Shown one piece after another: positions 1,046 to 55,702 of a stretch of DNA of 64,000 nt. The notes under the pieces were generated by a model. That model searched no databases and was not told where the DNA came from. It saw nothing but the letters and a program-made list of their open reading frames with translations. Each line of letters begins with the position of its first letter. Position 1 is the first letter of the stretch. Made by a program: the position numbers and the translations under genes. The DNA is from Auanema rhodensis (taxonomy: Eukaryota > Animalia > Nematoda): assembly GCA_964057225.1 (NCBI GenBank), contig OZ059894.1, positions 8,246,001 to 8,310,000 on the forward strand. The letters run 5' to 3'.

Positions 1046-1124
1046 GTGTCCCATGTTGTGGGCGGGGCTTGTTCAGGCTCCCGCTATTTGAATAGCGCGC
1101 ACATGTGTGCTTGCAGATGTGACA
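1045..1124. mobile_element. Probable LTR terminus fragment (...GATGTGACA) abutting tRNA-Asn nt 17; second copy ends at 216
   Basis: About 80 bp that is neither viral frame nor array sequence and ends in a canonical LTR-type terminus (TGTCAC on minus) exactly at the tRNA break. The other end is not visible. Confidence 0.5.
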
Positions 1125-11210: not shown

Positions 11211-11495
11211 TTACAATTTACAGAAAAGAAAAGAATGTATATAAAAATTTTTTCTGTCGTCGGCTTTGATGAAGTCCGGATCTTCGTAGGTGTCGTCAGA
11301 AGGTGAATATGTTCCTTCTCGGGGAGTATAAAACTGGTCGACTTGCGGCTTCGGCTTCTCGGCTGGTTGGTGCGGTTTTTCTATTTGAACACTAAGAAGT
11401 CGGGTACGGCTTCTGCGACGACTTGCGACAGTAGCGTCACTGTTGGTATCGGACGAGTAAAGGGCTCGGAAAACCGATGAGAATCTTTTGGCCAC
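11211..11495 (-). pseudogene. Remnant of the polyprotein N-terminus (gag leader)
   Basis: VAKRF...DQFYTPREGTYSP...EDPDF aligns with VDKRF...DKFFTPRAGTYSP...SDEDY of the 2894-aa ORF. Confidence 0.8.
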
Positions 11496-13429: not shown

Positions 13430-13442
13430 GGTGGAACCTCCA
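13430..13442 (-). promoter_or_regulatory. Primer-binding site, tRNA-Gln
   Basis: TGGAGGTTCCACC is complementary to the metazoan tRNA-Gln 3' end GGTGGAACCT-CCA and abuts the 5' LTR. Confidence 0.85.
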
Positions 13443-13786
13443 CGTTCCGTTATGCTCCTGCGTCGATAATATAAACCATTGTAGTTTATACCATGACGCG
13501 AATAGTATTCCTTGGTGTAGCGGTAGGAATACAGAGCATAAGGTCAATCATAAGATAAAAGAGAGAAAGATTTATTGGCATGAAACTACAACAATAATAT
13601 ACAAAGATAAAGATACAATACAATAAGATAAATATAAGTATAAAGACTAAACTACAAGCCGTCCATGAGCTTGCTAAGAGGCGAACTCCCGACCAAGGGA
13701 ACGAGGGAAGGCGGAGCCATTCCTCGGTCCTCTGGTGGTCTGGCTCTAACCCTTCAGCTACATATATGGGGAGTCCGAATGGAACG
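13443..13786 (-). repeat. 5' LTR (344 bp)
   Basis: Followed on the minus strand by the PBS. Confidence 0.95.
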
Positions 13787-21803: not shown

Positions 21804-22241
21804 AAATATTTTTGGTTTCCACAGTTCCAATTAAGCTTCAAATCAAGCAAAATTAAAATTTTTATTCATCTACTCACGATCTCATTCATAAATTTTCTAG
21901 AAGGCGTTCCATTCGGAAATCAATACGTAGCAGGTGGGTTAGAATCAGACGACATGAGGCTGAGAGAGGACGACACGCCCTTCATATGGAACACAGACTT
22001 CAGCTTTGCCTTATGGAATGACTATGGATGGTTGGTCTTCCTTTCTTAGCTCTCTTTCACTTTATATCTTTATGTAGACTTATATAACTTATTGTAATCA
22101 TGTAGACATAATAAACCTTTCTTTCTCGAGTCTTATGTTTATCCATTATGCTCTTTATCTACCGCTACATCTGGAATACTATCACACTCATCTTGTAGGC
22201 TTTATTGGTCTATAGGATCGACGTGAGAGCATAACGGAACG

Positions 22242-22254
22242 TGGAGGTTCCACC
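22242..22254 (+). promoter_or_regulatory. Primer-binding site, tRNA-Gln
   Basis: TGGAGGTTCCACC immediately after the LTR. Confidence 0.85.
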
Positions 22255-23650
22255 TCGAACATTTTTATCTTGATTTCTTGACTATTTTCTCTTATATTTC
22301 GTTATTTTTACTACATTTCATTGAATCTGAATTCTCTTATATCTCTACACCATCTACTCCATGTCTTAACACAATACGGTGGGGCCAACAACGTTTAAAA
22401 GGGAACAGATGCAAGGACCACTCCTTTTGGAGATGGATTTTATATTTTTTGAAACTGAAGTTATATTTTCCCGTTTGTTCACAATTTTCTGTCTGTCTGA
22501 ACCCAACAATTTTTGTATCCTTGCTGTTAACATCAAATACTCTGTTACCCGAACTCGAAGCATTTTTGAGGACCCTAGGATGAATTAGTGAACAAATTCA
22601 CCCAAGGATAATTTTTATTGAGATTTATGCCCACACTTTCCCCTTTTAAGGATTGATTTTGGCTTCGAGGAAAGAATAGCCACGGTTATTTCTTTATTTT
22701 TGTGGATGAAACAATTTTGCGCACCAAATTGAGATTATTTCATATTTTGCGATCAGGACTATTTTATTTTGCGTTACATTTCTGTTCAGACAACTTTTTG
22801 CCATTAACATCCGAAAATATTTTGATAACGCATTGAATTTACACGGGAAACCTCACCTAAATGGGAGGAATATTATGAAAAGTGAATTTTAAGATCGCTA
22901 TAGTCCGAAAAATCCTGTACAATTTTACGAACTGAATTATTATTAGTGATTGTCTATCAGGTCGTGTTGGCTTAAGCATATCAGTTTGGATTTTCTCCCC
23001 TTACTATATGTCACCTTCCTCATACCGTTATTGTTGTTTTGAAGCATAAGACTCATTCCTAAACACCATAATTCTTTAAATATAGTTATTGTAATCTTTA
23101 GTCATCTATTCCTAACCATAATTTTAAAACTAGATTTCTGATCATGATGGGACTACGGTACTCATTCGTTTTCCAAATTGCTTCCTTAAAAGAGTAATGC
23201 TATTACGGATGTACATTATGAAAACCGCTAAAATCCTTTGAACATTTACCAAAGTCCATTTTCGTGGCATTTTCGATCACTCGTGAGTCCAAGAAGATCA
23301 GAATCGTCAGAAAAAGAAAAAAAAATGGGAATAAGGACTAATGAGATTGCTCAGGCATCAATCAAGTGAGCACTGAACATTTTTGAACATATACAAACTG
23401 GTTGAATTATATACATTTAAGAATATTAAATTGGAAAGCGAACAAAGTCCAAATTTTCATACGGTAGTAGGCGGATCTCTGTTAAAGGCCACAACTTAGA
23501 TTCATTCCTTAACGCCGACTATACAAACCAGTTACGCACAGCTTTCTCACCCCTTTTCCAAAACTCCTTATCCATAACACTCATTAACGTCTCAAAATCC
23601 CCCACGTTACTAAACACTCAAGGTTTTTCCAAACCAAGAGCGCTACCAAA

Positions 23651-24165
23651 GTGGATAAGCGATTTCGATCAGCTGTACCTCTCAGTACACGAACTGATTT
23701 TGATCTGCGAGACTCAGCTCCACTCACCCGAAGCCGAGCTCGCGCACAAAGCATCGCTATAATCGAAGACGAGCAGAAAGCCGAGCACAAAACCGACAAA
23801 TTCTTTACTCCTCGTGCAGGCACTTATTCACCTACTGAACGATTAAGCGACGAGGATTACGTACCACCAGGAGGAGAAGAAACATCCATCATAGTGGAAG
23901 AACAAACACCAGTTACTGCTAAGAAGTCAACAACGTTGAAGGAAACATGGTACAACTCAAGAATCCATTTGGAAAAATTCAAGACGTACACAAAGACAAT
24001 CTCAAACTTTTGCGATCAAATACAACGACTTATGACACGGACGACGACAGCGATATTGAGATCATAAAAGTCATAAATGGTAACGATAACTATGACTCTA
24101 CTGAAGAAACAGAACCAGAAGACCCATCGGACCAAAATTGGCTACCACCAAGAAGAAGACGATGA
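23651..24165 (+). pseudogene. Deleted polyprotein: first ~90 codons joined out of frame to the integrase C-terminal tail
   Basis: 23651-23922 matches aa 1-91 of the 2894-aa ORF. 23947-24165 matches its C-terminus (MVQLKNPFG...NWLPPRRRR) with a further small deletion. Confidence 0.93.
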
Positions 24166-25299
24166 AAGAAATAATTTCGAGATTGATAAAATTATTGTAA
24201 AACTTTGTATCAACTCTCTTTTAAAAAACCAGAGCTATTAATATTATTATATCATTGAAAAACTTGAGTAAGACGAGATGTAAGCTAGTAATGAAAAAGC
24301 ATTTCAGTTTCAAAGCATATATGATTATAAAACTTCATCAATTTCAAATAATTTCCCGTAAATAAAGAAGAAATGAAAGATAAGAGACATTATATTGCAT
24401 ATTCATCTGAGCAACAGTCCTTATCAAGTAGTTAATGATTCAATTCCGGAAATTATATGGGATTTAGTTTAATTTTTTTTATTATTACAATTCGCTTTGA
24501 ATACGCTGAAGAAACATGCTAGCTCCATCGATAATATAGCATGACTCTCGTTTCTCTATACTCAAACAAGTTAGACATGCAGCGTCGTGCCTAAAAAGCT
24601 ATTTTGCGCACTCTCGCTGACAAAATATAGCCCTGGTATTCTAAAAGATTGTTTTATTCCTTAATATTCATGTATTTTCAAATAATTTTTATTAAATTCT
24701 TTTCAGATAATATTGTTTAACATTATATTGTAATTTATCTTTACTATTTTTATGTTAACATTGTAATTTTTATTTTTCAAAACTAAACCTTCTACTACGA
24801 TTGAAACAAGCCACATATTTTGCTATTCGCGAGGACGCGCCATAAACTCGAAAAAATGGCACGTTCCATTCGGAAATCAATACGTAGCAGGTGGGTTAGA
24901 ATCAGACGACATGAGGCTGAGAGAGGACGACACGCCCTTCATATGGAACACAGACTTCAGCTTTGCCTTATGGAATGACTATGGATGGTTGGTCTTCCTT
25001 TCTTAGCTCTCTTTCACTTTATATCTTTATGTAGACTTATATAACTTATTGTAATCATGTAGACATAATAAACCTTTCTTTCTCGAGTCTTATGTTTATC
25101 CATTATGCTCTTTATCTACCGCTACATCTGGAATACTATCACACTCATCTTGTAGGCTTTATTGGTCTATAGGATCGACGTGAGAGCATAACGGAACGAA
25201 GGATTGGATAAGATAGACCAGAACATCAGAAAATATGGATCATTGACTGATCTAAAACAGAAGTAGAACCTTCACAAGTCTAGATTGTTGAGTATATGT

Positions 25300-25473: not shown

Positions 25474-25810
25474 CGTTCCATTCGGAAATCAATACGTAGC
25501 AGGTGGGTTAGAATCAGACGACATGAGGCTGAGAGAGGACGACACGCCCTTCATATGGAACACAGACTTCAGCTTTGCCTTATGGAATGACTATGGATGG
25601 TTGGTCTTCCTTTCTTAGCTCTCTTTCACTTTATATCTTTATGTAGACTTATATAACTTATTGTAATCATGTAGACATAATAAACCTTTCTTTCTCGAGT
25701 CTTATGTTTATCCATTATGCTCTTTATCTACCGCTACATCTGGAATACTATCACACTCATCTTGTAGGCTTTATTGGTCTATAGGATCGACGTGAGAGCA
25801 TAACGGAACG
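25474..25810 (+). mobile_element. Solo LTR (337 bp)
   Basis: Same sequence as 21905-22241, AAGG on both sides, no PBS or internal sequence. Confidence 0.96.
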
Positions 25811-29677: not shown

Positions 29678-30106
29678 GAGCCCACCCGGGTATCGCGAAT
29701 GCGATTATTCATCATTCAATCGATGCAATCTCATCACGTTGGCTGATGAGATTCACGGGCACTCTGTTTTTATACCACCGTCGCGGACGGTCGCTTTTCT
29801 CTCTCCTCGTTGCTGTCTTTATCTTATGACTCATCTAGTCTGAACCACCGTTTTATCCTTGTCCTTTAGTAAGACTATCTCTAGTCTCATTAGTGATGTA
29901 TATCTAGTCTTATTACATTCACTCTAGTCTTCTATGTACTTTATCTAGTCTTATTATATATCTTCTAGTCCTTATATTCTGTATTTTGTATATCTGAATG
30001 GCATATGAATGAATCTTTCTTCCTCTAATAGTCTTTTATGTTAACAGGGCATAGAATAGAAAGTGTGAACCTGGGAGGCTATTTGAAGAGCCCTTTATCT
30101 TCAAAA

Positions 30107-30124
30107 TGGTGCATCGGCCGGGAA
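30107..30124 (+). promoter_or_regulatory. Primer-binding site, tRNA-Gly
   Basis: TGGTGCATCGGCCGGGAA is complementary to the tRNA-Gly(GCC) 3' end TTCCCGGCCGATGCA-CCA. Confidence 0.9.
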
Positions 30125-30431
30125 ACATGTGTAGAGTACAACCCAAATACTCCCAACTTCACCATAGTATTTCCGGCTCATGTTGTATTGCATGACCACA
30201 CATTCATCTCACGACATATTATCGATAAAAATGACACATTTGCATTGCATCAACTTGATTGTCCAGCAACTCCGTTTTGCGATATGATTCAATGTCTGTT
30301 CTGTCTTGAACTACTCCACAACCCATCTTGTTTCCCATACGCAGCACTCTCGGCGACCGCACTCATCATATGGCTCATTCTATTTAGTATTCTTTTAAGC
30401 ATCATAGTCATTCGAATTTGTTCTAAAAAAT
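30125..30431 (+). pseudogene. C-terminal fragment of a phlebovirus-like Gn glycoprotein plus TM helix
   Basis: CPATPFCDMIQCLFCLELLHNPSC followed by a hydrophobic stretch. 5'-truncated at the PBS and out of frame with Gc. Confidence 0.75.
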
Positions 30432-32339
30432 TTGTTCATATTGCACAATACACCCCTTTTTTCCGTTTGGCGTATGATCACTCAATGTCTCCCCTCTCAT
30501 ATAAGATCTCATATCTCTATTCAGGAAGAACGATCGGTACTCGAGTACGTCCCGCTCAGTTCTCACAAGCTACCTCGATGGCAGAAGTCTACACCCTCAC
30601 AACGATCACGACAACGTGACCGATTAGTTCACCGAGTCGGGTATCTTTTTGTTGCAATAATCGTCATTTTTTTGATTGAATCTCTTGTAGTTAATGCATG
30701 TACTATTGTTCCTCCGAGTATATCACATGTTCCAGGCAACTCCGTCTCGAACTTATCACCTACCCACCAAGTCAACCAAGTCAGCAGCTCCACCACCCTC
30801 CATACTTACGATAATGAGGTATGTTTTACAACTTCACATTCAAACCGATCATACGCCAATCCCCTCACGAACTCACACCTGCGCATCAAACTTATGTATA
30901 CACGTATACTGTGCACGAAAGTATCCTTATTTTTTACACGTCACACCATCGTAAAAACTGAATCCGCAAAACGGTGTCCCCATATGGGCTCTTGTGTAGG
31001 ATCGTTTTGTGCGAACGTTCGACCCAATACATCAATCTCAGAACTCTCATTAGCCAACCAATATCCAGGTACCAGCTATTGTTCAGAAAGCTGTGGATTT
31101 CTATCATGCGGTTGTGCGTTGCCAACTTCTGGTTGTCTCTTCTATCGCAACTTTCATGTTCCCAATGACAATATCACCCACGAAGTTTTCTACTGCTCAC
31201 GATGGACACCTAGGGTTTTTCTCCAGATTAGCATCCATACAGCTATTGAAAACAAAACTGAAACGATCTCGCACGTCCCCTTTTTACCACACTCTACAAA
31301 AATCATTAACGGGTACCATATTACTCTTGGGAGAATAACATATTCTGATAATGAAATCCTCCATAGACGATACATTACTTCCGACTCGAGAATTGCAGTT
31401 TTACCTCACTCTGCTACATTTTCATACTCGTGCGGAAAAGTTAAAACCGCTGACCCATTCTCCGAATGCACTGCAACAGACACATGTTCATGCAGACCAG
31501 CCGAAACAGTCGAAAATTGCTATTGTCAGGACAACAATCCTAACAAACTCTATACTAATAACTACACCCTACCATTATCTCTTCCATCTCTGACCATGAT
31601 CCCAAAAAACAATCTCATTTTTGCTCATCCCATAAGCGCTGTTGACATTAAAATGTGGACAAATATCTCAGATGTCACTTATGAATACGACGATAGTCCT
31701 ACTATTTGCGAACTAAAATCCAAAGACCTAGTTGGATGTTTTGACTGTGTTACTGGAGCAACAACAATCATTACTTGCATCAGTACATCATCCCACATTC
31801 GAATTTCGTGCGACGATGAAGAATTTCTGCTTACATGCAATTCTCAGGGTTACAACAACTCTATTCGCATACACAGCAATTTTTCAACACCGTCTATAAC
31901 GTGTACTCATCCGTGTACTTCCGCCACATTACATCTCAAAGGCAACTTGTACTACGTGAACGAATACATAGGTTTTGAACAGTCCACTCATCAGATTACA
32001 AACAGTTCATTCAGTCTCCTGAACGTCGAGTTTACCATACCGAGCTTTTTTGTACCCACTCACTTAATCAGCTCACTTGTTTCGTTTTACTCGGACTACC
32101 TTAAAACGATTGTAATACTATTGAGTGTTTTGATCACAGTACTCGGCTTTGTAACCGCCGTAATTGACCGCGTCTTCCAGTTGTCAAGTACACCCGCTCT
32201 CTTAGCATATTTACCCATACAAATACTTATTATCTTCGCAATTCCTTTTCGCATCATTTTTTTCACAATTCATTTGTTGTTCAAGATTGTAGTTCGAGCC
32301 AGTCATAGCGCAGTGGCTAAGGGTACACACTCTCAGTGA
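30432..32339 (+). CDS. env: Phlebovirus-like Gc (class II fusion) envelope glycoprotein
   Basis: Internal signal (YLFVAIIVIFLIESLVVNAC), RCPHMGSC, CSESCGFLSCGCALPTSGCLFYR fusion-loop region, GCFDCVTGA, C-terminal TM segments. True start uncertain. Confidence 0.88.
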   Translation: MFILHNTPLFSVWRMITQCLPSHIRSHISIQEERSVLEYVPLSSHKLPRWQKSTPSQRSRQRDRLVHRVGYLFVAIIVIFLIESLVVNACTIVPPSISHVPGNSVSNLSPTHQVNQVSSSTTLHTYDNEVCFTTSHSNRSYANPLTNSHLRIKLMYTRILCTKVSLFFTRHTIVKTESAKRCPHMGSCVGSFCANVRPNTSISELSLANQYPGTSYCSESCGFLSCGCALPTSGCLFYRNFHVPNDNITHEVFYCSRWTPRVFLQISIHTAIENKTETISHVPFLPHSTKIINGYHITLGRITYSDNEILHRRYITSDSRIAVLPHSATFSYSCGKVKTADPFSECTATDTCSCRPAETVENCYCQDNNPNKLYTNNYTLPLSLPSLTMIPKNNLIFAHPISAVDIKMWTNISDVTYEYDDSPTICELKSKDLVGCFDCVTGATTIITCISTSSHIRISCDDEEFLLTCNSQGYNNSIRIHSNFSTPSITCTHPCTSATLHLKGNLYYVNEYIGFEQSTHQITNSSFSLLNVEFTIPSFFVPTHLISSLVSFYSDYLKTIVILLSVLITVLGFVTAVIDRVFQLSSTPALLAYLPIQILIIFAIPFRIIFFTIHLLFKIVVRASHSAVAKGTHSQ

Positions 32340-32370
32340 TTGATGACGGGTTCAATACCCAGTGAGTCCT
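32299..32370 (+). ncRNA. Degenerate tRNA-like / Pol III A+B box cassette
   Basis: TAGCGCAGTGG (A box, 32306) and GGTTCAATACC (B box, 32349) at tRNA-like spacing, T-runs downstream, imperfect stems. Confidence 0.5.
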
Positions 32371-32476
32371 CGATTTATTTTCTCGATTTCTTAGTTCCCT
32401 ATCATAGCAAACGATTGTTCAATTTGATTTACACCAATCCTACACAATTTATCATTTCGCCGGGGGGAGGTATACT

Positions 32477-32896
32477 ATGTATAAAAACCATCATTATTTC
32501 AGTCTTGATAACATCAAAGAATGGAGCGATTCCCTTGATCAACTCCAGGATAACGGCAACGCAAAGATGCCTAACAAAAGTCAGAATATGTCTGCACCAA
32601 AAAAGCAGAACAACTCTAAAGTGAAGTACAGAAAAATGGAAGAAGACATGAAATGTCAACTCTGTTGGAAGAAGGGCCACACCATGGGAAAATGCACAGT
32701 CTACAAGACTGCAGCACAACGCGTCAAGCGTTGCAAGTTGATCAACATGTGCTTGAAGTGTTTGCGGAACCACTTTGGAAAACCGTGTGTGGAGAAGATG
32801 AAGAAAATATGTCATGTGTGCAAAGGAAGCGGACTGGACCACGATCATCCTGGTGTATTATGCAAGCTGCAGTTTGCGGAGGAATTAGCAGAATGA
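32477..32896 (+). CDS. Small basic triple zinc-knuckle protein (BEL/Pao Gag NC-like), downstream of env
   Basis: CQLCWKKGHTMGKC, CLKCLRNHFGKPC, CHVCKGSGLDHDHPGVLC; Lys-rich. Confidence 0.75.
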   Translation: MYKNHHYFSLDNIKEWSDSLDQLQDNGNAKMPNKSQNMSAPKKQNNSKVKYRKMEEDMKCQLCWKKGHTMGKCTVYKTAAQRVKRCKLINMCLKCLRNHFGKPCVEKMKKICHVCKGSGLDHDHPGVLCKLQFAEELAE

Positions 32897-33552
32897 AATC
32901 AGTTCTGATTTCTCTCTCTTGGCCCGGAATATCGCGAATGCGATTATTCATCATTCAATCGATGCAATCTCATCACGTTGGCTGATGAGATTCACGGGCA
33001 CTCTGTTTTTATACCACCGTCGCGGACGGTCGCTTTTCTCTCTCCTCGTTGCTGTCTTTATCTTATGACTCATCTAGTCTGAACCACCGTTTTATCCTTG
33101 TCCTTTAGTAAGACTATCTCTAGTCTCATTAGTGATGTATATCTAGTCTTATTACATTCACTCTAGTCTTCTATGTACTTTATCTAGTCTTATTATATAT
33201 CTTCTAGTCCTTATATTCTGTATTTTGTATATCTGAATGGCATATGAATGAATCTTTCTTCCTCTAATAGTCTTTTATGTTAACAGGGCATAGAATAGAA
33301 AGTGTGAACCTGGGAGGCTATTTGAAGAGCCCTTTATCTTCAAAACCGGGAGCGAAATATTTTTGGTTTCCACAGTTCCAATTAAGCTTCAAATCAAGCA
33401 AAATTAAAATTTCAATTCATCTACTTACGATCTCATTCATAAATTTTCTAGAAGGATTGGATAAGATAGACCAGAACATCAGAAAATATGGATCATTGAC
33501 TGATCTAAAACAGAAGTAGAAACTTCACAAGTCTAGATTGTTGAGTATATGT

Positions 33553-43978: not shown

Positions 43979-44202
43979 AAACATTTTTGATTTCCACAGT
44001 TCAAATTAAGCTTCAAATTGAGCGAAATTAAAATTTTAATTCATCTACTTACGATCTCATTCATAAATTTTCTAGAAGGATTGGATAAGATAGACCAGAA
44101 CATCAGAAAATATGGATCATTGACTGATCTAAAACAGAAGTAGAAACTTCACAAGTCTAGATTGTTGAGTATATGTGCTTCCGTGGCGCAATAGGCAGCG
44201 CG

Positions 44203-44539
44203 CGTTCCGTTATGCTCTCACGTCGATCCTATAGACCAATAAAGCCTACAAGATGAGTGTGATAGTATTCCAGATGTAGCGGTAGATAAAGAGCATAATG
44301 GATAAACATAAGACTCGAGAAAGAAAGGTTTATTATGTCTACATGATTACAATAAGTTATATAAGTCTACATAAAGATATAAAGTGAAAGAGAGCTAAGA
44401 AAGGAAGACCAACCATCCATAGTCATTCCATAAGGCAAAGCTGAAGTCTGTGTTCCATATGAAGGGCGTGTCGTCCTCTCTCAGCCTCATGTCGTCTGAT
44501 TCTAACCCGCCTGCTACGTATTGATTTCCGAATGGAACG
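44203..44539 (-). repeat. 3' LTR (337 bp)
   Basis: Direct repeat of 55332-55668. Confidence 0.97.
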
Positions 44540-45239
44540 TGCCATTTTTTCGAGTTTATGTCGCGTCCTCGCGAATAGCAAAGTATGTGGCTTGTTTCAA
44601 TCGTAGCAGAAGGTTTAGTTTTAAAAAATAAAAATTACAATGTTAACATAAAAATAATAAAGATAAATTACAATATAATGTTAAACAATATTATCTGAAA
44701 AGAATTTAATAAAAATTATTTGAAAATACATGAATATTAAGGAATAAAACAATCTTTTAGAATACCAGGGCTATATTTTGTCAGCGAGAGTGCGCAAAAT
44801 AGCTTTTTTAGGCACGACGCTGCATGTCTAACTTGTTTGAGTATAGAGAAACGAGAGTCATGCTATATTATCGATGGAGCTAGCATGTTTCTTCAGCGTA
44901 TTCAAAGCGAATTGTAATAATAAAAAAAAAATTTAAACTAAATCCCATATAATCTCCGGAATTGAATCATTAACTACTTGATAAGGACTGTTGCTCAGAT
45001 GAATATGCAATATAATGTCTCTTATCTTTCATTTCTTCATTATTTACGGGAAATTATTTGAAATTGATGAAGTTTTATAATCATATATGCTTTGAAACTG
45101 AAATGCTTTTTGATTATTAGCTTACATCTCGTCTTACTCAAGTTTTTCAATGATATAATAATATTAATAGCTCTGGTTTTTTAAAAGAGTGTTGATACAA
45201 AGTTTTACAATAATTTTATCAATCTCGAAATTATTTCTT

Positions 45240-48200
45240 TCATCGTCTTCTTCTTGGTGGTAGCCAATTTTGGTCCGATGGGTCTTCTGGTTCTGTTTCT
45301 TCACTAGAGTCATAGTTATCGTTACCATTTATGACTTTTATGATCTCAATATCGCTGTCGTCGTCCGTGTCATAAATCGTTGTATTTGATCGCGTGTTTT
45401 GAGCGATTGTATGCTCCATTTTGCGATCAAAAAGTTTTAGATTGTCTTTGTGTACGTCTTGAATTTTTCCAAATGGATTCTTGAGTTGTACCATGTTTCC
45501 TTCAACGTTGATGACTTCAAATGGTCCGTCATATGATTTGCGAAGCTTTTGACCTGGTCTATGCGCTTTAATTGCTAACATAACATGGTCTCCTTTTCGG
45601 ATATCTCTTTCTTCTATTCGTTGTCGTCCATCATGTTTTCTCTTCGCGGTTTCTTGATGTTTTGCAAGATTTTCTTGAATGATGGTTCTTCTTTCTCCTC
45701 TGATATATTCGGTATTCTCAATTTCTTCCAAGATCTCTTGTTGTAATGTCTCGGGGAATAATTCTTTGTCTAATCTCATACGACTTTCTTTTCCGAATAA
45801 TGCTATGTATGGAGAGATTCCTGTGGTTGCGTGTGTTATTGTATTTAACGCAAAAGTAATTTTTGGTAAATACATGTCCCAATCAGTTACGTCTTCGTTG
45901 AGATAGTGTGTTAATCCTTCTTCTAGCGTTCTGTGTAGTCTTTCGACTTGTCCATTAGAGTTTTTCTGATGAGGGAGTGTTGGCTCGTGTTTAATGCCAA
46001 GTTTTTCACACATTTCTTCAAATTTCTTTGATACAAAATTAGATCCACGATCGGTTATTAAACGATTTGGTGGTCCAAAAATATATACGAAATTCCTGAG
46101 GAATCTATCAATGATGACATCGGTGACAATTGTTGGTATAGCGATGGTTGTCGCCCATTTGGAGAATGAATCTTGTATTGTTAGGACATAATTGTTGTTT
46201 CTTTTTGAAGTAGGGAATGGTCCCATAATATCCATATGTATTCTCTCAAATGGTTTTGATGGTATTTCAAATTGACCCATAGGCTGAACGGTCATAGCGT
46301 GAGGATCTTTCTTCCTTTGTGCGCATTTAACGCATTGTTTCACAAAAATTGCTATGTCCGTTTGCATATTTGTCCAGCTAAATCTTCGTAGTATGGCTTC
46401 TTTAGTTTTGTTAATTCCTTGATGTGCTCCAATTGCTGGGTCTTCGTGAAATTCTTCGATAACCTTGTTGATAAGTTCGCTTTCCCTTGGTAAAATCAAA
46501 GCTGGGTGTGGTCGTTTTCTGCTTGGTTTTGTGTATAACATGTTGTCAATAACACAATAACGATCATTAGAAAGCATGTTCTTTTTCGCTCTGTATTCTA
46601 TTTCGGCGATAGTTCTCTTTATCCAAGGTGTATCCTCTTGAATTGCTCTAATGTCAGGTACATTAACGAAATTAATTTGAGCTTTCGGAATTTCTTTTGT
46701 TTTCTTTTTCTTTTCCGGTTTAGGATCGTTTGCTTCATCTCCAATGTATCGTGAGAGAGCATCACAGACTTTGTTTAGTCTGCCTTCTCGGTATCTTATC
46801 TCGATATCGTATTCTTGTATGACTAATTGAAATTTTGCTAGTCTTCCAAAAAGGTCTCTACGAGTCAATAAGCTTGTTAATGGTCGATGGTCTGTGATAC
46901 AGATTGTATGTGATCCAAGTATATATGTTCGAAACTGAGCTAAAGCATATACGAGTCCTAACGCTTCTATTTCAATAGGAGCATAGTTACGTTCTGCTTT
47001 TACAAGTTTACGGCTTGCAAATGCAATTGGATGTAAGTTTTTGAGTGGTTCATTGGGATCTTCAGGTTGTAATAACACTGCTCCCACTGCGATATTACTA
47101 CCATCACTTTCTATAATGAACATACGGTCTGATCTTGGCGGTTTTAAGACCGGTGCTTGGATCAATTTTCTTTTTAGTGTATCAACAGCTTGTTGACTTT
47201 TGTCATTCCATTGAAATTCTACATCAAGTTTTGTAAGGTCGTATAAAGGGCTTGCGATGTGTGCAAAATCTTTAATAAATTTCCGAAAGAATCCTACCAT
47301 TCCCAAAAATGCTCTTACTCCTGTAGGTGACTTTGGAGCAGGATAGTCTTGAATGGCGGAGACTTTCTGTGGATCTGGTTTGACCCCATCTCTTCCGACA
47401 ATTAAACCAAGAAATTTTACTTCAGGTCTCGCAAAAGCGCATTTCTTGAGTTTTATTTTCATGCCTAATTTCTTTACTTCTCTGAGAATCTCAGCTATAT
47501 CGTCAAGATGTTGTTCTGCAGTGTCTGATATAACGAGTAGATCATCCAAATAAACAAAGAGTCGGCATTTACATCGGCTTTGAAGGTATCGTACTGCTGT
47601 TTGAAAGGTATGTGGCGCTCCACATAACCCCATAGGCATCCTTCTATATTGATAAGTACCGGTGTTTGTTGTAAATGCTGTTAATGGTCGATCTGATTTC
47701 TTTAATGCTATTTGGAAGAATCCGGATACTAAATCAAAGTTAGAAAAATATTGTGATCCGGCTGCCATATCGACAATGTCGGAGATGTTAGGTATGATGT
47801 ACGTTTGCTTGCGAGTGACGTTATTTAGAGCACGGAAATCGGTTACGAAACGGAATGTTTCATCTTTCTTTTTGACTAAAACTACAGGACTATTGAAAAG
47901 AGATGTGGATGGTTCAATTATATTTTGCTTCAGCATCTCCTGTACCTGTCTTTCGACTTCTTCTTGTTTGCCTATAGGGATACGCGTTATACGCGGTCTA
48001 GGCATGTCCATATCTGTTCTTAGAGGTATTGAATGCTCTACAGGTCCTTTAAATAGTCCTATTCGTTTATCCTCATTTAAAAATGCGTCTCTATTACGTA
48101 GAATACAAAGCTGAAGAAGATCTTTTTGTTCTTTAGTTAGGTCGGCGTCTTTCAAATCAAGATCGTTCATAAAGTCCTGAGGGAAATGAGGTAATTTATT

Positions 48201-51200
48201 TTCCCAATCCGCTTCGGGTGGTATATAGTCTGGATTGTGTTCGGTCGTAAAGATCTCGTATTGTGGCAGTACGCCTATTTTTGCTTTGTCAATAATGTTT
48301 CCGGGTGATAGATCTATAGGATGATCAGTGTTGTTTTTGAATGTCATGGTAATTGAATTGACGTCTCGAAATGCTGTTTCGTAGGTGGTAGATATCGTCT
48401 TTTCTTCATCGGGTTGTAGCATGGCGACTTCGTTGTGTGATATGGGTTCAGCTAACCTTACTGGTATTCTACAGGTCTGATGAGGAAAGATACATTGTGG
48501 ATTTAAATTTATCAAATTAATGACAAATGATGTTTTTCTAATATTCCCGTTATTTCCATTGGCTAACGGTACTACGCGGTTTCCGATTTCTAACGTTTGT
48601 TTGTATGGTCGAAGTTTCATACCGATATTTTGACGGTCGAGTGTTTTCATAAAATCTAATCCAATTAATGCTGGTGATGGACAGTCTTCATCTCTTGAAA
48701 TGAAGAATGTATGATCTATTTCATATCCAGCGATTTCTACGGTTAAATCAATTGTTCCCAGAAATCGAAATGCTGATCCGTTTGCTGTCGTTGCAACTGA
48801 TTTATCCTTTTTTACAAAATCATTCAAAGTTAAGTAATGTAATGTTGAGAGTCTGATATAACTAATCGATGATCCTGAATCCCAAAGAGTTAGGATTAGT
48901 CTATCGTTAACAGTCATCAATAGCAGTGGTAGAGTTTGGTCTTTGCGATTGGAAACTGAACAAACTATGGGCATAGCTAGTGGAACTAAAGTGAGAAACG
49001 ATGGATAGTACTGTTTCATTATGTTCCTTGGTATTGGCTGATCAGGTTGACTTACTAGCTCTAATGTTTCTTCATATGTGGGAAGATCGTTGGTTTGATC
49101 TCGGAGTTCGATATGCATGACTTGCATGCCTATTGGTTTGAAGAAATATATTTTCGCAACAAAGGCTAGTACGATCAGTATAACTACAATAATTGTAATT
49201 GCTCCAATAGTGATGAGTGTTCGTTCAATCGTTCCTGCTATTGTATCGACAAAAGAATTCCATGTACTTTTGGTGAATTCATTGGCTTTGGAGATGTAAT
49301 CACTACTTTTCTTCAATATGCTGAATGCTGATGATATTTTCGGATCATGATGAATTGTGTGAAGCACGTGATTTTGACGAATCGATGCTAAACTAGCACC
49401 ATAAGCAATGGCTGTTGTCATTGAGTACACTCGAGATGATAAGTTGGTGTATAAGTGTGCTCCGGTGAATTTTAATGGCGTGATCTTTTCATGATGAAGT
49501 CCGTCCCACATGGATATAAGACTGACGTCTACAGTACCATTAATTCCTTTCCATTCACCGTCTGTTGACCATACGTCTGTTGGTACGTGATCACAGTTAA
49601 TTTCTTTACCATGAGGTAATAGGTCTTTCGATCCTGGTGCGGCAAACAGTAATTGTCCTTCTTGTGTTAATACTGGAGTTTCGAGATAACATGTGCCATT
49701 CACAGTGTGATTGTGATATATAGTCTTTTGTAATACTACCGGGCAAACATGTATATGTAATATCTCGCTGCCTACAAATCTTGCGGCTATATCTTCTCTT
49801 CCCAGTATTGTACGCATAGCTATTGTTGGTTCGATTTGTAAAATTGATCTCCATAATTCAAGATACCTATTTTGGATCTCACATATTGATTCGTATGACT
49901 CTTTAAAATGTTTCTGCAGTTCTTCTTGAATCATAGTTGTAGCATATTGCAAATGATCTTGTGCAATTCTGCTTGTTATGTTTTGGCGAAACTGTTGTTC
50001 AGAGTCAACTTTTGTGGCAATGTATTGAGCATTAGCCTGTACAGACTCTATATCGGTGGCTGTAGGCGTTGATGATGCTCTATGTTTACGAATCAAAGAT
50101 ATTGGTGTATATGTAGTTTCTTCCATTATTGGAATTTGTTGATCTTGATGAACAGCGTAGAGAATAGTAGTTGGCGGCGCGCGGGTCGATATTGTTGCGC
50201 GCGCGGTTGTCGTTGCGGTTGTATGGCGCGCCGTTGTTTCGGGCTGGGCCATCGATGAAGGCGCGCGCGCGGTAGTTGCTGCGGCTGCCCGAGGGCTTGT
50301 AGATGTTTGCGGCAGTATTGCGGGATCTGTTGTGATCGGCGCCTCACGATCGATTATAGGGAGGGCTGCCATCTCGGCCGCGCCGCCTGCCGCGTTGCTT
50401 GGCGCACGCGTCGTGGTTTGCAACGATTTAAGTTGGATTTTCTCTGTCATTAATCTTTTTAACTGTTCTGATGATATTCTACTAGATGTATTAGGCAAAA
50501 TATTATCGTTTAGTAGTGGTAAAAATATTTCCAATAATAAGTCCTTAGAGATGTTGTTGGGCTCTATGAGCTTGGGATGTGGTCCAATTGGTATTCCAAA
50601 ATTATTCTTGATGTCATAGAACAATTTATCAGTATCAAGTACAAACATTCGTGAAGATGGAAGGTTTATAAATTTTATATCATCAATATCAGCTGCTGTT
50701 TTATTTCTTCTAAGCGTAACGAGAGTTTTTAGCTCATGTACAAGGTCAATTGTATCTTTTATAAATTTGCTGTTTCTTTCTTCTTGATCAGTTAATAATT
50801 GTTTCCTTATTGGTGGCATTTTTACGAATGCTTTCAATATTTCTTGTCTTGATGGAACTGTTAATTTGTCTTCAATTATAACTGGTGTATTGGCTAAATC
50901 AAGAGCAATAGTTTCAGCACGCTCTCGATAAGTGCCTTCTTTTGTACGAATTAACCGATCAAATTCAATAACGGTCAAACGATCTGATATTTGTTGAAGA
51001 AGTTGCCTGGATGTTAAATAAGATATTCCAGCTTTAGTAGCTAAAGCTAATTCTCTTTGAGCAACATATTGTAAAATGGCTTCGTCTTTATCACGGAAAT
51101 CATATTGTTTGAGAAAATGTCTTAAAGATTTCTCATAAATTTGAATTTTAAAGAAAAATTCAAAATTTTCACGATGGGCTATTATCCATTCTTTCAAGGA

Positions 51201-53924
51201 ATATGTAGGGTCTACCATACGTCTTCCTTTAATTAGAGGAATAATTTGTGTAATTCCTGGATTACTCATAAGTGGTCTTAAAAATGGATATGGGCAAATT
51301 CGAAGCGTGTACGTTTCAAAATCTTCAACTTCATTTATTCTATCCTGATCGAATGGGAATGAGCATTTTGTAGAAGTTGCGCGTTTAGGTCTTTTGAACG
51401 GCAATTTCTTAAATTCTCGTTCAATTAGGAGTGTGATATTGTTATCATTAGGATATTTGGGGAATGTTATATAATTTCCTGATGTTGTGTGGAATGCTGG
51501 TTGTCTAAAGCAGGATGCAATTGGTTTTGGTGTTATTTTACTCGAAAGGATAAGCGCTGATTGTGTACTTGGAATCAAAATAGTTTCTTTGCTTATTATA
51601 GCATCGTAGTAATGCATATCGATATAATTACAACGGGAATCCGATGTTTGGGGATCCCATATAATTATTGATGTATTTGATTTGCAATTACCATGATGAG
51701 CACTACAACCTTCAGTGTTTAGTATTAAATTGGATAATATTGTATCATCGGGCATGCGGGTCATGACTCCGCGCTCGAGTACTAAACGCGGCCGCTCCTC
51801 GCACTCGTCGCGGCTAAACGCGCGCGCCGGATCATAGGAGGGCTCTGGGGTTGCTTGTGCTATACTATCGATTCTCTCCAGCTCCATGTTATTCCATTTG
51901 CGATCGCGAATCGCCTGCCTGCACTCGTGCGCCGCTATAGGCTGCACCCTATCGATTGTTCTGTTTGTGTCGCGGAGGAATAACAAATCGCGTACACACA
52001 GCTTGTGTACTTCCTTCGAGCAGCGCCACGCGTCCCACTCGTGTGCCGTGTGGTTTCGCGTGTATAGATGGATTTGTGTACGTAGCACATGATTTGTTTC
52101 TGTTAATTTACATTTCTTTACTACTGGTGGAACTAATAAGGCTCCTCCAGTTGCTTTTGTGCAAATTTGATATGAAGTTACACATGGCAGGAAAATTGCT
52201 ACTGTGATTGCCATTACAACCGTTAGTGATAACGGTGAAAGGGTCACAGAGTTTATTCGTGGTGTGCTTCTATCTCGTCCTCTTGATTGATCTCTTTGAT
52301 TGTTAAAATGGACTCTTCTTTGTCCGTTATGTTCATTAGTCCTTCCTCTTCTACTATTGTTTGAAGGATTAAAATTGTTTGAATGCCAGTTGTTATTAAA
52401 TCGTCCCGAATTTCGTTCATAATTATTGTTACGGCGATAATTAGCAAAAGAGCCGTTACGATTTTGGTTGTTATTATATTTTGAAAAGTTTTTATTTTTC
52501 TGATAATTTTGATAATTATGATAATTTTTATTGTTTTGGTTATCACGTGGATAATTACGGTCGAAATTTCGGTTATCTCGTCTCTCGTTTGTGCGCGCGA
52601 AAGGAGCTAGTGCTTTGTTTACAGCATTGACTAGCATGGACTGCGTGTCTGTTGTCTGGTTCATTATCGATTCTTCCCAGCGAGCGGCCTCAATCGCATC
52701 CGTGAAGGATTTTGGCTTCGCTCGAATCACAGCTGGTTTCAGAGTATTTTTTAGTCCTCTGAGGAAAGTTGATCTTAATATGTGATCTTTGTGACGGTCA
52801 TCCGTGGCAAAAGCGCTTAGTGCAATCGTTCTCAGTGATTGAGCGTAAGCGTCAATTGTCAGATCACCTTGGGTTGTATTTTGGAGATTGATCAGCGCTG
52901 GATCCTGATTATATTCAGGACAAAGCTTAGATGTTAAAGCTCTTAACAGGTCATTCCATGAACCGGTGGTTTTTAATTGTTCAGGTACTTGCCTGTACGC
53001 TTCTTCCGCTGCTTCGTTTTTAAGAAGCAAAGGTAGAAGGGCTAATCTCTCCGGGATTACCAGACCTACAGCGTTGGCAAATAGGTTGAATTTAGCCGTG
53101 AAATCTCGAAAGTTGCGACTGCCATCATAAGTTGGGCAGTAGGGTGATAACAAGGCTTGCGCTATGGTAGTTTTCCCTGCCCCAGGTAAAGAGGGTTCAG
53201 TTGCCATATTACTTGTACGGGCAGATGGCATTTTTATCACTCTGCCTGTTGTTAATAAGTTCTCAGACACAGGGGTTGTGTGTACTGAGCGGCTGGGTCG
53301 GTTTGGTGTTTTTGAACCTCCTGTTGTTGTATTTGGTAAAATTGGGGTTGAAGTTTGGTTATCAGTAATAGCAAGATGTGTATGTTCGGGTGGTTGTATG
53401 GGAGATAAATTAATGTTTGGAACCGACGAGTATCTATTCGTGTGGCTGGTGTTCAAGTTTCGATCTTTTGGTGAACGATTGAAGAGATCAGAAACTATGT
53501 TTTTAAAAGTTTGTAAACCGCCTGCACTAGTAGTGGCTACTGAAGGTGAAACTGTTGGTTCAGGGATGGACAGAGAGAGAGATGCGTCCGATTTGCTTGA
53601 GTTTTTATTTTTATTTTTCTTATTTTTATTTGAATTAGAGGAGCGTACCTTTTTAGCAGTAACTGGTGTTTGTTCTTCCACTATGACGGATGTTTCTTCT
53701 CCTCCTGGTGGTACGTAATCCTCGTCGCTTAATCGTTCAGTAGGTGAATAAGTGCCTGCACGAGGAGTAAAGAATTTGTCGGTTTTGTGCTCGGCTTTCT
53801 GCTCGTCTTCGATTATAGCGATGCTCTGCGCGCGAGCTCGGCTTCTGGTGAGTGGAGCTGAGTCTCGCAGATCAAAATCAGTTCGTGTACTGAGAGGTAC
53901 AGCTGATCGGAATCGCTTATCCAC
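45240..53924 (-). CDS. Gag-Env-Pol polyprotein (2894 aa; start codon uncertain)
   Basis: Gag CA-like (YDGSRNFRDF...AIEAARWEE); env from about 52250 to 49140; protease LWDSGSSISY (~48880); RT NSPVVLVKK, TDFRALN, MPMGL, YLDD (~47545); RNase H ESDGS, RNY...EAL, TDHRPL; integrase HHCC, HMDIMGP, ITDRG, VERLHRTLE, GPF. Confidence 0.97.
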   Translation of the reverse strand: MDKRFRSAVPLSTRTDFDLRDSAPLTRSRARAQSIAIIEDEQKAEHKTDKFFTPRAGTYSPTERLSDEDYVPPGGEETSVIVEEQTPVTAKKVRSSNSNKNKKNKNKNSSKSDASLSLSIPEPTVSPSVATTSAGGLQTFKNIVSDLFNRSPKDRNLNTSHTNRYSSVPNINLSPIQPPEHTHLAITDNQTSTPILPNTTTGGSKTPNRPSRSVHTTPVSENLLTTGRVIKMPSARTSNMATEPSLPGAGKTTIAQALLSPYCPTYDGSRNFRDFTAKFNLFANAVGLVIPERLALLPLLLKNEAAEEAYRQVPEQLKTTGSWNDLLRALTSKLCPEYNQDPALINLQNTTQGDLTIDAYAQSLRTIALSAFATDDRHKDHILRSTFLRGLKNTLKPAVIRAKPKSFTDAIEAARWEESIMNQTTDTQSMLVNAVNKALAPFARTNERRDNRNFDRNYPRDNQNNKNYHNYQNYQKNKNFSKYNNNQNRNGSFANYRRNNNYERNSGRFNNNWHSNNFNPSNNSRRGRTNEHNGQRRVHFNNQRDQSRGRDRSTPRINSVTLSPLSLTVVMAITVAIFLPCVTSYQICTKATGGALLVPPVVKKCKLTETNHVLRTQIHLYTRNHTAHEWDAWRCSKEVHKLCVRDLLFLRDTNRTIDRVQPIAAHECRQAIRDRKWNNMELERIDSIAQATPEPSYDPARAFSRDECEERPRLVLERGVMTRMPDDTILSNLILNTEGCSAHHGNCKSNTSIIIWDPQTSDSRCNYIDMHYYDAIISKETILIPSTQSALILSSKITPKPIASCFRQPAFHTTSGNYITFPKYPNDNNITLLIEREFKKLPFKRPKRATSTKCSFPFDQDRINEVEDFETYTLRICPYPFLRPLMSNPGITQIIPLIKGRRMVDPTYSLKEWIIAHRENFEFFFKIQIYEKSLRHFLKQYDFRDKDEAILQYVAQRELALATKAGISYLTSRQLLQQISDRLTVIEFDRLIRTKEGTYRERAETIALDLANTPVIIEDKLTVPSRQEILKAFVKMPPIRKQLLTDQEERNSKFIKDTIDLVHELKTLVTLRRNKTAADIDDIKFINLPSSRMFVLDTDKLFYDIKNNFGIPIGPHPKLIEPNNISKDLLLEIFLPLLNDNILPNTSSRISSEQLKRLMTEKIQLKSLQTTTRAPSNAAGGAAEMAALPIIDREAPITTDPAILPQTSTSPRAAAATTARAPSSMAQPETTARHTTATTTARATISTRAPPTTILYAVHQDQQIPIMEETTYTPISLIRKHRASSTPTATDIESVQANAQYIATKVDSEQQFRQNITSRIAQDHLQYATTMIQEELQKHFKESYESICEIQNRYLELWRSILQIEPTIAMRTILGREDIAARFVGSEILHIHVCPVVLQKTIYHNHTVNGTCYLETPVLTQEGQLLFAAPGSKDLLPHGKEINCDHVPTDVWSTDGEWKGINGTVDVSLISMWDGLHHEKITPLKFTGAHLYTNLSSRVYSMTTAIAYGASLASIRQNHVLHTIHHDPKISSAFSILKKSSDYISKANEFTKSTWNSFVDTIAGTIERTLITIGAITIIVVILIVLAFVAKIYFFKPIGMQVMHIELRDQTNDLPTYEETLELVSQPDQPIPRNIMKQYYPSFLTLVPLAMPIVCSVSNRKDQTLPLLLMTVNDRLILTLWDSGSSISYIRLSTLHYLTLNDFVKKDKSVATTANGSAFRFLGTIDLTVEIAGYEIDHTFFISRDEDCPSPALIGLDFMKTLDRQNIGMKLRPYKQTLEIGNRVVPLANGNNGNIRKTSFVINLINLNPQCIFPHQTCRIPVRLAEPISHNEVAMLQPDEEKTISTTYETAFRDVNSITMTFKNNTDHPIDLSPGNIIDKAKIGVLPQYEIFTTEHNPDYIPPEADWENKLPHFPQDFMNDLDLKDADLTKEQKDLLQLCILRNRDAFLNEDKRIGLFKGPVEHSIPLRTDMDMPRPRITRIPIGKQEEVERQVQEMLKQNIIEPSTSLFNSPVVLVKKKDETFRFVTDFRALNNVTRKQTYIIPNISDIVDMAAGSQYFSNFDLVSGFFQIALKKSDRPLTAFTTNTGTYQYRRMPMGLCGAPHTFQTAVRYLQSRCKCRLFVYLDDLLVISDTAEQHLDDIAEILREVKKLGMKIKLKKCAFARPEVKFLGLIVGRDGVKPDPQKVSAIQDYPAPKSPTGVRAFLGMVGFFRKFIKDFAHIASPLYDLTKLDVEFQWNDKSQQAVDTLKRKLIQAPVLKPPRSDRMFIIESDGSNIAVGAVLLQPEDPNEPLKNLHPIAFASRKLVKAERNYAPIEIEALGLVYALAQFRTYILGSHTICITDHRPLTSLLTRRDLFGRLAKFQLVIQEYDIEIRYREGRLNKVCDALSRYIGDEANDPKPEKKKKTKEIPKAQINFVNVPDIRAIQEDTPWIKRTIAEIEYRAKKNMLSNDRYCVIDNMLYTKPSRKRPHPALILPRESELINKVIEEFHEDPAIGAHQGINKTKEAILRRFSWTNMQTDIAIFVKQCVKCAQRKKDPHAMTVQPMGQFEIPSKPFERIHMDIMGPFPTSKRNNNYVLTIQDSFSKWATTIAIPTIVTDVIIDRFLRNFVYIFGPPNRLITDRGSNFVSKKFEEMCEKLGIKHEPTLPHQKNSNGQVERLHRTLEEGLTHYLNEDVTDWDMYLPKITFALNTITHATTGISPYIALFGKESRMRLDKELFPETLQQEILEEIENTEYIRGERRTIIQENLAKHQETAKRKHDGRQRIEERDIRKGDHVMLAIKAHRPGQKLRKSYDGPFEVINVEGNMVQLKNPFGKIQDVHKDNLKLFDRKMEHTIAQNTRSNTTIYDTDDDSDIEIIKVINGNDNYDSSEETEPEDPSDQNWLPPRRRR
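49140..52250 (-). other. env: Envelope glycoprotein domain within the polyprotein (probable class III, herpes gB/chuvirus G-like)
   Basis: Hydrophobic signal (LSLTVVMAITVAIFLPCVTS|YQIC), spaced Cys, N-glycosylation sequons, furin site RPKR, ICEIQNR...PTIAMRTILGREDIAARFVG motif, TM anchor (LITIGAITIIVVILIVLAFVA). The class assignment is from motif recall. Confidence 0.8.
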
Positions 53925-55318
53925 TTTGGTAGCGCTCTTGGTTTGGAAAAACCTTGAGTGTTTAGTAACGTGGGGGACTTTGAGACGTTAATGAGTGTTA
54001 TGGATAAGGAGTTTTGGAAAAGGGGTGAGAAAGCTGTGAGTAACTGGTTTGTATAGTCGGCGTTAAGGAATGAATCTAAGTTGTGGCCTTTAACAGAGAT
54101 CCGCCTACTACCGTATGAAAATTTGGACTTTGTTCGCTTTCCAATTTAATATTCTTAAATGTATATAATTCAACCAGTTTGTATATGTTCAAAAATGTTC
54201 AGTGCTCACTTGATTGATGCCTGAGCAATCTCATTAGTCCTTATTCCCACTTTTTTTTCTTTTTTTTCTGACGATTCTGATCTTCTTGGACTCACGAGTG
54301 ATCGAAAATGCCACGAAAATGGACTTTGGTAAATGTTCAAAGGATTTTAGCGGTTTTCATAATGTACATTCGTAATAGCATTACTCTTTAAGGAAGCAAT
54401 TTGGAAACGAATGAGTACCGTAGTCCCATCATGATCAGAAATCTAGTTTTAAAATTATGGCTAGGAATAGATGACTAAAGATTACAATAACTATATTTAA
54501 AGAATTATGGTGTTTAGGAATGAGTCTTATGCTTCAAAACAACAATAACGGTATGAGGAAGGTGACATATAGTAAGGGGAGAAAATCCAAACTGATATGC
54601 TTAAGCCAACACGACCTGATAGACAATCACTAATAATAATCCAGTTCGTAAAATTGTACAGGATTTTTCGGACTATAGCGATCTTAAAATTCACTTTTCA
54701 TAATATTCCTCCCATTTAGGTGAGGTTTCCCGTGTAAATTCAATGCGTTATCAAAATATTTTTGGATGTTAATGGCAAAAAGTTGTCTGAACAGAAATGT
54801 AACGCAAAATAAAATAGTCCTGATCGCAAAATATGAAATAATCTCAATTTGGTGCGCAAAATTGTTTCATCCACAAAAAATAAAGAAATAACCGTGGCTA
54901 TTCTTTCCTCGAAGCCAAAATCAATCCTTAAAAGGAGAAAGTGTGGGCATAAATCTCAAAAAAAATATCCTTAGGTGAATTTGTTCACTAATTCATCCTA
55001 GGGTCCTCAAAACTGCTTCGAGTTCGGGTAACAGAGTATTTGATGTTAACAGCAAGGATATAAAAATTGTTGGGTTCAGACAGACAGAAAATTGTGAACA
55101 AACGGGAAAATATAACTTCAGTTTCAAAAAATATAAAATCCATCTCCAAAAGGAGTGGTCCTTGCATCTGTTCCCTTTTAAACGTTGTTGGCCCCACCGT
55201 ATTGTGTTAAGACATGGAGTAGATGGTTTAGAGATATAAGAGAATTCAGATTCAATGAATTGTTGAAAATAACGAAATATAAGAGAAAATAGTCAAGAAA
55301 TCAAGATAAAATGTTCGA

Positions 55319-55331
55319 GGTGGAACCTCCA
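55319..55331 (-). promoter_or_regulatory. Primer-binding site, tRNA-Gln
   Basis: TGGAGGTTCCACC abutting the 5' LTR. Confidence 0.85.
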
Positions 55332-55667
55332 CGTTCCGTTATGCTCTCACGTCGATCCTATAGACCAATAAAGCCTACAAGATGAGTGTGATAGTATTCC
55401 AGATGTAGCGGTAGATAAAGAGCATAATGGATAAACATAAGACTCGAGAAAGAAAGGTTTATTATGTCTACATGATTACAATAAGTTATATAAGTCTACA
55501 TAAAGATATAAAGTGAAAGAGAGCTAAGAAAGGAAGACCAACCATCCATAGTCATTCCATAAGGCAAAGCTGAAGTCTGTGTTCCATATGAAGGGCGTGT
55601 CGTCCTCTCTCAGCCTCATGTCGTCTGATTCTAACCCGCCTGCTACGTATTGATTTCCGAATGGAAC

Positions 55668-55668
<1 letters not shown>
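55332..55668 (-). repeat. 5' LTR (337 bp)
   Basis: Termini CGTTCC...GGAACG. Confidence 0.97.

Positions 55669-55702
<34 letters not shown>

Follow-up and report, generated by a model that had tools for sequence, protein, structure and literature searches.

How can one protein chain that holds Gag, then Env, then Pol be routed, cut and packaged? The point is unsolved, and a clean case of it is offered by the stretch of Auanema rhodensis DNA analyzed here (64,000 nucleotides of contig OZ059894.1, referred to as the window), in which one full-length LTR element (44203-55668, minus strand) encodes such a chain.

The element and its reading frame

The frame (45240-53987, minus strand) spans 2915 amino acids from stop to stop, its only stop lying at the end, and the Pfam domains along it follow the order Gag capsid, viral fusion glycoprotein, aspartyl protease, RT, RNase H and integrase. 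A preliminary description of the locus had proposed a stop-free gag-env-pol frame, which these data bear out; the start that it gave (53924), however, has to be moved, as the frame extends 21 codons further 5' to 53987, and 53924 is a GTG that is probably too far 3' to be the start. Residues are counted here from 53987 (the first codon after the upstream stop), a shift of 21 relative to the earlier numbering.

The element is an intact, recently inserted Ty3/gypsy copy. Its LTRs (5', 55332-55668; 3', 44203-44539; both minus strand) are 337 bp long, with 0 differences between them over 337 bp, in line with the recent insertion suggested in the preliminary description. Both have CG...CG ends within a 6-bp terminal inverted repeat. 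The LTR ends of retroelements are usually TG...CA; in the window, CG...CG termini were observed at 5 of 5 LTRs of the element's family and at both LTRs of a sister family, and the listed results of a literature search on CG-ended LTRs showed nothing specific. A primer binding site for tRNA-Gln (55319-55331, minus strand) adjoins the 5' LTR, and its first 12 nt are those of the Gln site of two Caenorhabditis GAG-ENV-POL elements in the available part of PMC13524379 (suppl. 1). The 5' leader (53988-55331, minus strand; 1344 nt) contains 15 upstream ATGs, with a longest product of at most 59 aa.

The insertion is flanked by a 4-bp target site duplication (44199-44202, second copy 55669-55672) inside a tRNA-Asn(GTT) gene. 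This gene belongs to a tandem array (window 1367-64000) of 149 intact tRNA-Asn(GTT) genes in 259- and 271-bp units, interrupted by at least five mobile-element insertions within 64 kb. Three insertions of the element's family and its sister family show 4-bp target duplications; two of the CG-ended insertions lie 10 bp apart in spacer sequence, and the third lies within a tRNA-Asn gene. With a different 4-mer at each of the three insertions, strict target specificity was rejected. An internally deleted copy (21905-25198, plus strand) and a solo LTR (25474-25810, plus strand), both from the element's family, share one 4-bp site in the array spacer. The sister family is non-autonomous (9737-13786, minus strand); it has 344-bp LTRs with CG...CG ends and a Gln primer binding site like those of the element, its LTR is 74-77% identical in parts to the element's, and it retains only a Met-less N-terminal coding stretch.

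Two further insertions in the window are of other kinds. An element at 29691-33345 (plus strand) has identical direct repeats of ~416 bp and phlebovirus-like glycoprotein frames (Pfam Phlebovirus_G2, E 2.5e-64; G1, 0.002), with no Pol match, and probably represents an env-only form related to the class II Env elements of nematodes. At 430-1083 (minus strand), a 217-aa frame cut by the window edge is, from its match to PF01660 (E 3.2e-15), the family of viral RNA-capping methyltransferases, a putative RNA-virus fragment in host DNA; the 271-bp junction in which it sits is duplicated and takes in part of a tRNA-Asn gene.

Where translation of the long frame begins is not marked by an ATG. The first ATG is codon 253 (at 53231), and the 252 codons 5' of it are without a stop (chance about 2e-6 by composition); this ATG-less stretch is also conserved in the sister family of the window. 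Between the two families, codons 4-21 differ in frame by 7 synonymous and 5 replacement changes, compared with 1/7 and 1/8 in the other frames, a pattern that points to coding constraint by codon 5. Constraint at the RNA level may come on top, since codons 12-17 are overlapped by a conserved hairpin. Because a stop directly precedes codon 1, the first ATG comes only at codon 253 and the upstream codons are conserved, translation likely initiates at a non-AUG codon 5' of the GTG at 53924. A conserved frameshift entry from an overlapping upstream frame was also considered, and was dropped because the sister element shows the opposite frame relation.

The Gag region begins with an N-terminal extension (53142-53987, minus strand; aa 1-282), ATG-free before aa 253, followed by the capsid (52638-53141, minus strand; aa 283-450), which matches Pfam Ty3_capsid and Retrotrans_gag (aa 322-413, E 2.4e-5). 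An Asn/Arg-rich, NC-like region (52257-52622, minus strand; aa 456-577; 29% Asn, 17% Arg) has no zinc knuckle; a knuckle is present in 7 of 31 homologues among the matches listed. At the other end of the chain, Pol (45243-48965, minus strand) comprises, by Pfam and motifs, PR (1691-1781), a linker, RT (2038-2196), RNase H (2260-2393) and integrase (2503-2673) with a C-terminal SH3-like part. The catalytic motifs are intact (DSG 1703, YLDD 2146, integrase HHCC and D-35-E), and the PR-RT linker presumably resembles the dUTPase-like segment of other gypsy elements.

These features allow the element to be placed. In RT-RNase H comparisons the Ty3 match is best (E 6.7e-80), the next reaches 2.3e-49 and the MLV-type match 4e-33; the PR-RT-RH-IN order, the LTRs, the tRNA primer binding site and the short target duplication are likewise those of Ty3/gypsy (Metaviridae). 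The marks of Retroviridae, an RT of retroviral type and a class I env located 3' of pol, were not observed, nor were the env 3' of integrase and class II fold of Belpaoviridae (Atlas type). By sequence, then, the element is classified as a Ty3/gypsy metavirus outside Retroviridae. In a tree of 22 RTs, built from search matches only and without an outgroup, the query groups with proteins of C. japonica and C. nigoni as its sisters (support 100/99), with 12 of 19 inner branches, most deep branches among them, left open. Among named relatives, proteins from Auanema and Caenorhabditis come closest, and the best Env relative is a protein of Auanema sp. JU1783 (P0001), which is collinear with the query from CA through Env to RT.

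Predicted fold and topology of the Env region

Two hydrophobic segments stand out in the Env region when topology is called from hydropathy: a signal-like one at 578-610 and a TM one at 1582-1624. The first contains a predicted internal signal peptide (52173-52244, minus strand; aa 582-605), with an INSV motif just before it; the second contains the transmembrane segment (49125-49241, minus strand; aa 1583-1621; Kyte-Doolittle maximum 3.18). A predicted cytoplasmic tail (48966-49124, minus strand; aa 1622-1674) carries LPTY and part of a weaker hydrophobic stretch ahead of PR (aa 1660-1679, maximum 1.49), which is under the TM threshold and recurs in few relatives; VCSV follows. Among the matches listed, a hydrophobic segment lies just before the Env N-terminus in 27 of 32 rows with gag ahead of env (query included), and a TM segment lies between Env and PR in all 31 scored rows (one segment in 21, two in 9, three in 1), a count from which 7 further rows without a D[ST]G match were left out. 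In several of the 10 rows with more than one segment above threshold a single TM is split, and in 4 there is a separate weak segment (1.6-1.8) near PR. The LPTY (49074-49085, minus strand) aligns with PPSY of P0001 and resembles a WW-binding late domain; as a general motif of the Env tail it is unsupported, [PL]PxY occurring in 2 of 31 rows among the matches listed.

The ectodomain between these segments carries 12 sequons (aa 600-1640) and consists of two halves separated by a large insertion. The N-terminal half (51381-52172, minus strand; aa 606-869) is gB domain I/II-like and ends at RPKR; the C-terminal half (49248-50078, minus strand; aa 1304-1580) resembles gB domains III-V and contains a long central helix. 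Pfam detects Monjiviricetes_fusion at aa 1346-1605 (E 6.5e-13) and herpes Glycoprotein_B at aa 1343-1426 (E 2.5e-8, below the gathering score), and the gB domain III helix was found weakly by sequence alone (E 0.0014). The RPKR at 866 is the sole RX[KR]R match in Env, and RKHR at 1300 is a second, weaker site; of 87 homologues among the matches listed, no more than 40 have an RX[KR]R between their Env halves. Both hydrophobic segments lie where the preliminary description had put them, given the shift of 21 in numbering.

To compare this region with known fusogens, we used a structural model of the ectodomain built from 101 sequences (mean pLDDT 66, pTM 0.45), in which both halves are confident (pLDDT mostly 83-98 in the N-terminal half) and the middle is poor. 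The Foldseek comparison that had been proposed for this region ranked herpesvirus gB first in the PDB (HSV gB, E 5.2e-12); in BFVD it gave the G proteins of Beihai rhabdo-like virus 3 (4.1e-15), Nyavirus midwayense (2.9e-12) and Socyvirus heteroderae (2.3e-8), with herpesvirus glycoproteins also among the top matches. By VIA-align, the N-terminal half (model residues 29-269) matches HCMV gB (7yrn) with a Z of 11.4 and an rmsd of 6.2 over 222 aligned residues. Because the whole-chain rmsd of the model is large (near 20-29 A), the model matches gB domain by domain and makes no prediction of how the domains are arranged. The absence of a fusogen fold or membrane topology, which would have told against the original interpretation, was not what we found: judged from the model, the Env region is a homologue of class III (gB/nyamivirus-type) fusogens and a putative fusogen itself.

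The insertion has two parts. A mostly helical domain (50418-51380, minus strand; aa 870-1190) directly follows RPKR, and a mucin-like, Thr/Ser/Pro/Ala-rich stalk (50079-50417, minus strand; aa 1191-1303; 57% S/T/P/A; 14% identical to P0001) ends at RKHR. The resulting gap between the Env halves (475 residues) is among the largest of 87 homologues among the matches listed, in which it ranges from -7 to 489. In the best 150 of 275 matches, the helical domain was matched in 8 of the 151 proteins examined, all from Auanema sp. JU1783, and in the 3 relatives whose sequence includes its beginning it comes after a furin-type site; other relatives among the matches listed have unrelated inserts, up to 489 aa, at the same Env position. 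A model of the domain from 9 sequences reaches a pTM of 0.71. It has no match in Pfam at E 0.1 or in BFVD at E 0.001; the best VIA Z is 3.2 among 48,161 chains, and the best Atlas value is 0.88, with low recognition. For a modeled domain, such a lack of database matches does not establish a new fold.

One tentative reading, which we regard as possible rather than probable, is that this helical domain, set on a mucin-like stalk at a furin site, is an attachment head built into the fusogen, which after cleavage would be either shed or kept by the half anchored in the membrane to bind receptors, and that the CG-ended LTRs and the non-AUG start mark a distinct sub-lineage with its own rules of entry, integration and translation. 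If the attachment-head reading is true, one chain does what gD/gH/gL do for herpes gB. The domain is in any case a candidate for a missing attachment function, the available text of PMC13524379 stating that the entry of elements with gB only is unknown.

Proposed processing of the chain and alternatives to it

The borders between the regions carry similar motifs. RINSV, VCSVS and QINFV, noted in the preliminary description, are present at the borders (577, 1675 and 2437), and two more occurrences lie between CA and NC (453) and on the C-terminal side of PR (1823). We defined the motif as [VI][NC][ASFL][VI] on the query and then tested it on homologues; a shuffle P-value was set aside, since the motif had been defined on the same protein. 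Among the matches listed, the strict motif precedes the signal peptide in 9 of 30 homologues and stands at -40 to -18 of the PR D[ST]G in 9 of 30, compared with 2 occurrences in 16,362 ectodomain residues used as a control; it is missing at each Env border in 21 of these 30 homologues, which are related and not independent. A looser form has 17 occurrences in the query, and P0001 has VNAV, VNAL, VSAI and INIV at the aligned border positions. We infer that the border motifs are sites for the element's own protease.

Together, these observations suggest an answer to the question posed above, namely that the element behaves as an enveloped retrovirus would if it were made as a single polyprotein spanning the membrane, a prediction that we consider likely to be right; the mechanism is read here from DNA and protein sequence and from models. 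Translation would begin at a non-AUG codon within the first ~5 codons, and Met253 or Met261 could serve as the start of a shorter Gag. The internal signal (582-605) would open translocation, signal peptidase would free the Env N-terminus near 606, and the TM (1583-1621) would stop transfer, leaving PR-RT-RH-IN on the Env tail. With an internal signal peptide and one TM, the polyprotein would cross the ER membrane twice, and thus Gag and Pol would remain on the cytosolic side while the gB-like Env enters the secretory pathway, in agreement with the ER-threading polyprotein of the preliminary description. The element's protease would cut at [VI]-[NC]-x-[VI] (453, 578, 1675, 1823 and 2438) to yield CA, NC, PR, RT-RH and IN, and furin would cleave Env at RPKR 869 and perhaps also at RKHR 1303. 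Gag assembly on the membrane bearing Env-Pol would carry Pol into the particle; the predicted topology suggests that Pol arrives there on the Env tail. Enveloped particles would then carry the genome between cells, where integrase would make 4-bp duplications at the CG ends.

The same DNA frame could instead be divided during expression, with splicing, frameshifting out of the frame or early termination separating the products, so that Gag exceeds Env and Pol and Pol is not necessarily tethered to the membrane. Other LTR elements produce much more Gag than Pol, which favors this alternative, as do seven in-frame slippery heptamers, and Cer1, a nematode element whose genome has one ORF, obtains a second protein by splicing (passages of PMC10309623 / PMC5408684). 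The deleted copy, 96-98% identical to the element, lacks 8134 nt, and its junction can be read as a GT...AG intron over these 8134 nt, with a weak acceptor, or as a cut at short shared sequence. In a run search, 11 of 15 listed rows (3 studies) held at least half of the query words, and none is recorded as RNA. In the contigs of four runs from one study, which are guessed to be RNA, the internally deleted form dominates, with variants like the window's deleted copy, and env and pol are thin; two more joints there have shared ends of 7-8 nt and are not readable as GT-AG. These four runs inform neither on expression nor on the absence of splicing. Against separate products, a consensus scan of the element found no donor near the gag end, no strong acceptor before PR and no env-skipping splice pair; an acceptor-like site at 48880 would delete the catalytic Asp of PR; and the signal peptide, TM and border motifs stay in frame in many homologues among the matches listed. 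We consider a division of this kind improbable.

A second alternative concerns spread rather than processing: Env may be kept for another job, such as anchoring assembly at ER membranes, while the element moves only within germ cells. No transfer from cell to cell or from animal to animal has been shown for gB-type elements, their entry mechanism being unknown according to the available text of PMC13524379, and deleted, env-less copies multiply too. Nevertheless, both ectodomain halves are 60% identical to those of P0001, a value higher than that of PR (49%) and close to that of the start of RT (66%), and in the model Env retains a full class III fold, its cysteines and the furin site; we regard this alternative as very unlikely.

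Relatives and known systems

The homologues bear on whether the fusion itself is peculiar to this copy. A profile search gave 275 proteins at E 0.001, of which the best 150 of 275 were listed, and 151 proteins were examined with domain calls made at a loose cut-off, a few of which may be wrong: 19 have the order gag-env-pol, 32 env-pol and 6 pol-env, 91 have env without a pol match, and 3 have no match. The BEL/Pao lineage carries env after pol, and the 6 proteins with pol ahead of env probably belong to it. Because env lies ahead of pol in one chain in 51 of the 151 proteins examined, the in-frame fusion appears from these sequences to be a family trait and not a one-off. That it arose by accident in one copy or assembly, an env piece having landed in frame in an ordinary gag-pol element, would fit the single full-length copy in the window, but is in substance refuted by these homologues, by the collinearity of P0001 from CA through Env to RT and by published examples of the layout (PMC13524379 and PMC6431247, available parts), and its probability appears negligible.

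The layout, whose novelty had been left open when the locus was first described, is real and has already been published for nematodes and flatworms. It was stated in 2019 for the planarian element Burro, in which gag and pol enclose an in-frame env (Arkhipova and Yushenova 2019, PMC6431247, in part), and GAG-ENV-POL is the rule for the 36 nematode elements of Chary and Hayashi (eLife 2026, PMC13524379, in part), who cite Sacco et al. 2022 (J Gen Virol 103:1739, doi 10.1099/jgv.0.001739) for elements of nematodes in which ENV and POL have swapped places. A literature phrase search for the layout found only PMC13524379; the available passages of PMC5408684, on rotifers, do not describe a gag-env-pol order, and the listed results of a search on Auanema elements showed nothing specific. 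In the parts of PMC13524379 used here, all 36 nematode rows are ENV_HSV, a tRNA-Gln primer binding site occurs in 8 of 36 (2 with the element's 12-mer), and ectodomains lie either between a signal peptide and a TM or between two TMs; the screen took in two Auanema assemblies, yet the master table has no Auanema element. The words 'polyprotein', 'mucin', 'non-AUG' and 'target site' are absent from the available main text.

The element is therefore an added example of a published layout, not a new kind of architecture, and with the layout published, what remains to explain is the extra domain inside the fusion protein. Our analysis supplies positions for the predicted signal peptide, TM and protease sites of one gag-env-pol chain. 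The details that it adds are the internal topology, the recurrence of the border motif, an inserted domain found only in Auanema among the matches listed, the CG...CG LTR ends and the constraint 5' of the first AUG.

It is instructive to compare the element with known systems. With the 'ancient errantiviruses' (HSV/gB-type) of PMC13524379, as described in the parts available, it shares the GAG-ENV-POL order, a gB-type Env, a Ty3/gypsy Pol and about 11 kb between LTR starts; like them, it has uninterrupted GAG, ENV and POL between LTRs, and a gB-type ectodomain between a predicted signal peptide and a TM. The Burro / GYPSM1 polyproteins described in the available part of PMC6431247 are longer (4,873-5,140 aa) and contain BCL2, SUMO-like, BIR and ankyrin cargo and CCHC knuckles, whereas the element's chain of 2915 aa has no such cargo and no knuckle. 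With herpesvirus gB and nyamivirus/rhabdo-like G, the element's Env has the domain folds and the domain III helix in common, but identity is 9-20% and a 475-residue gap separates its halves. The NERV elements (non-canonical nematode endogenous retroviruses) of Sacco et al. 2022 reportedly have a continuous gag-env-pro-pol ORF with a metavirus-like RT and a nyamivirus-like Env, and are said to carry accessory ORFs (a small ORF or an Upf1-like helicase); the element shares the continuous ORF and the relationship to nyamivirus-type G, but not the accessory ORFs, the longest stop-free stretch in its 3' UTR being 46 aa. Atlas virus and related nematode BEL/Pao elements likewise combine an envelope with a nematode LTR element, but the Atlas Env is class II (PMC10309623 / PMC5408684 passages), unlike the class III-type Env of the element analyzed here.
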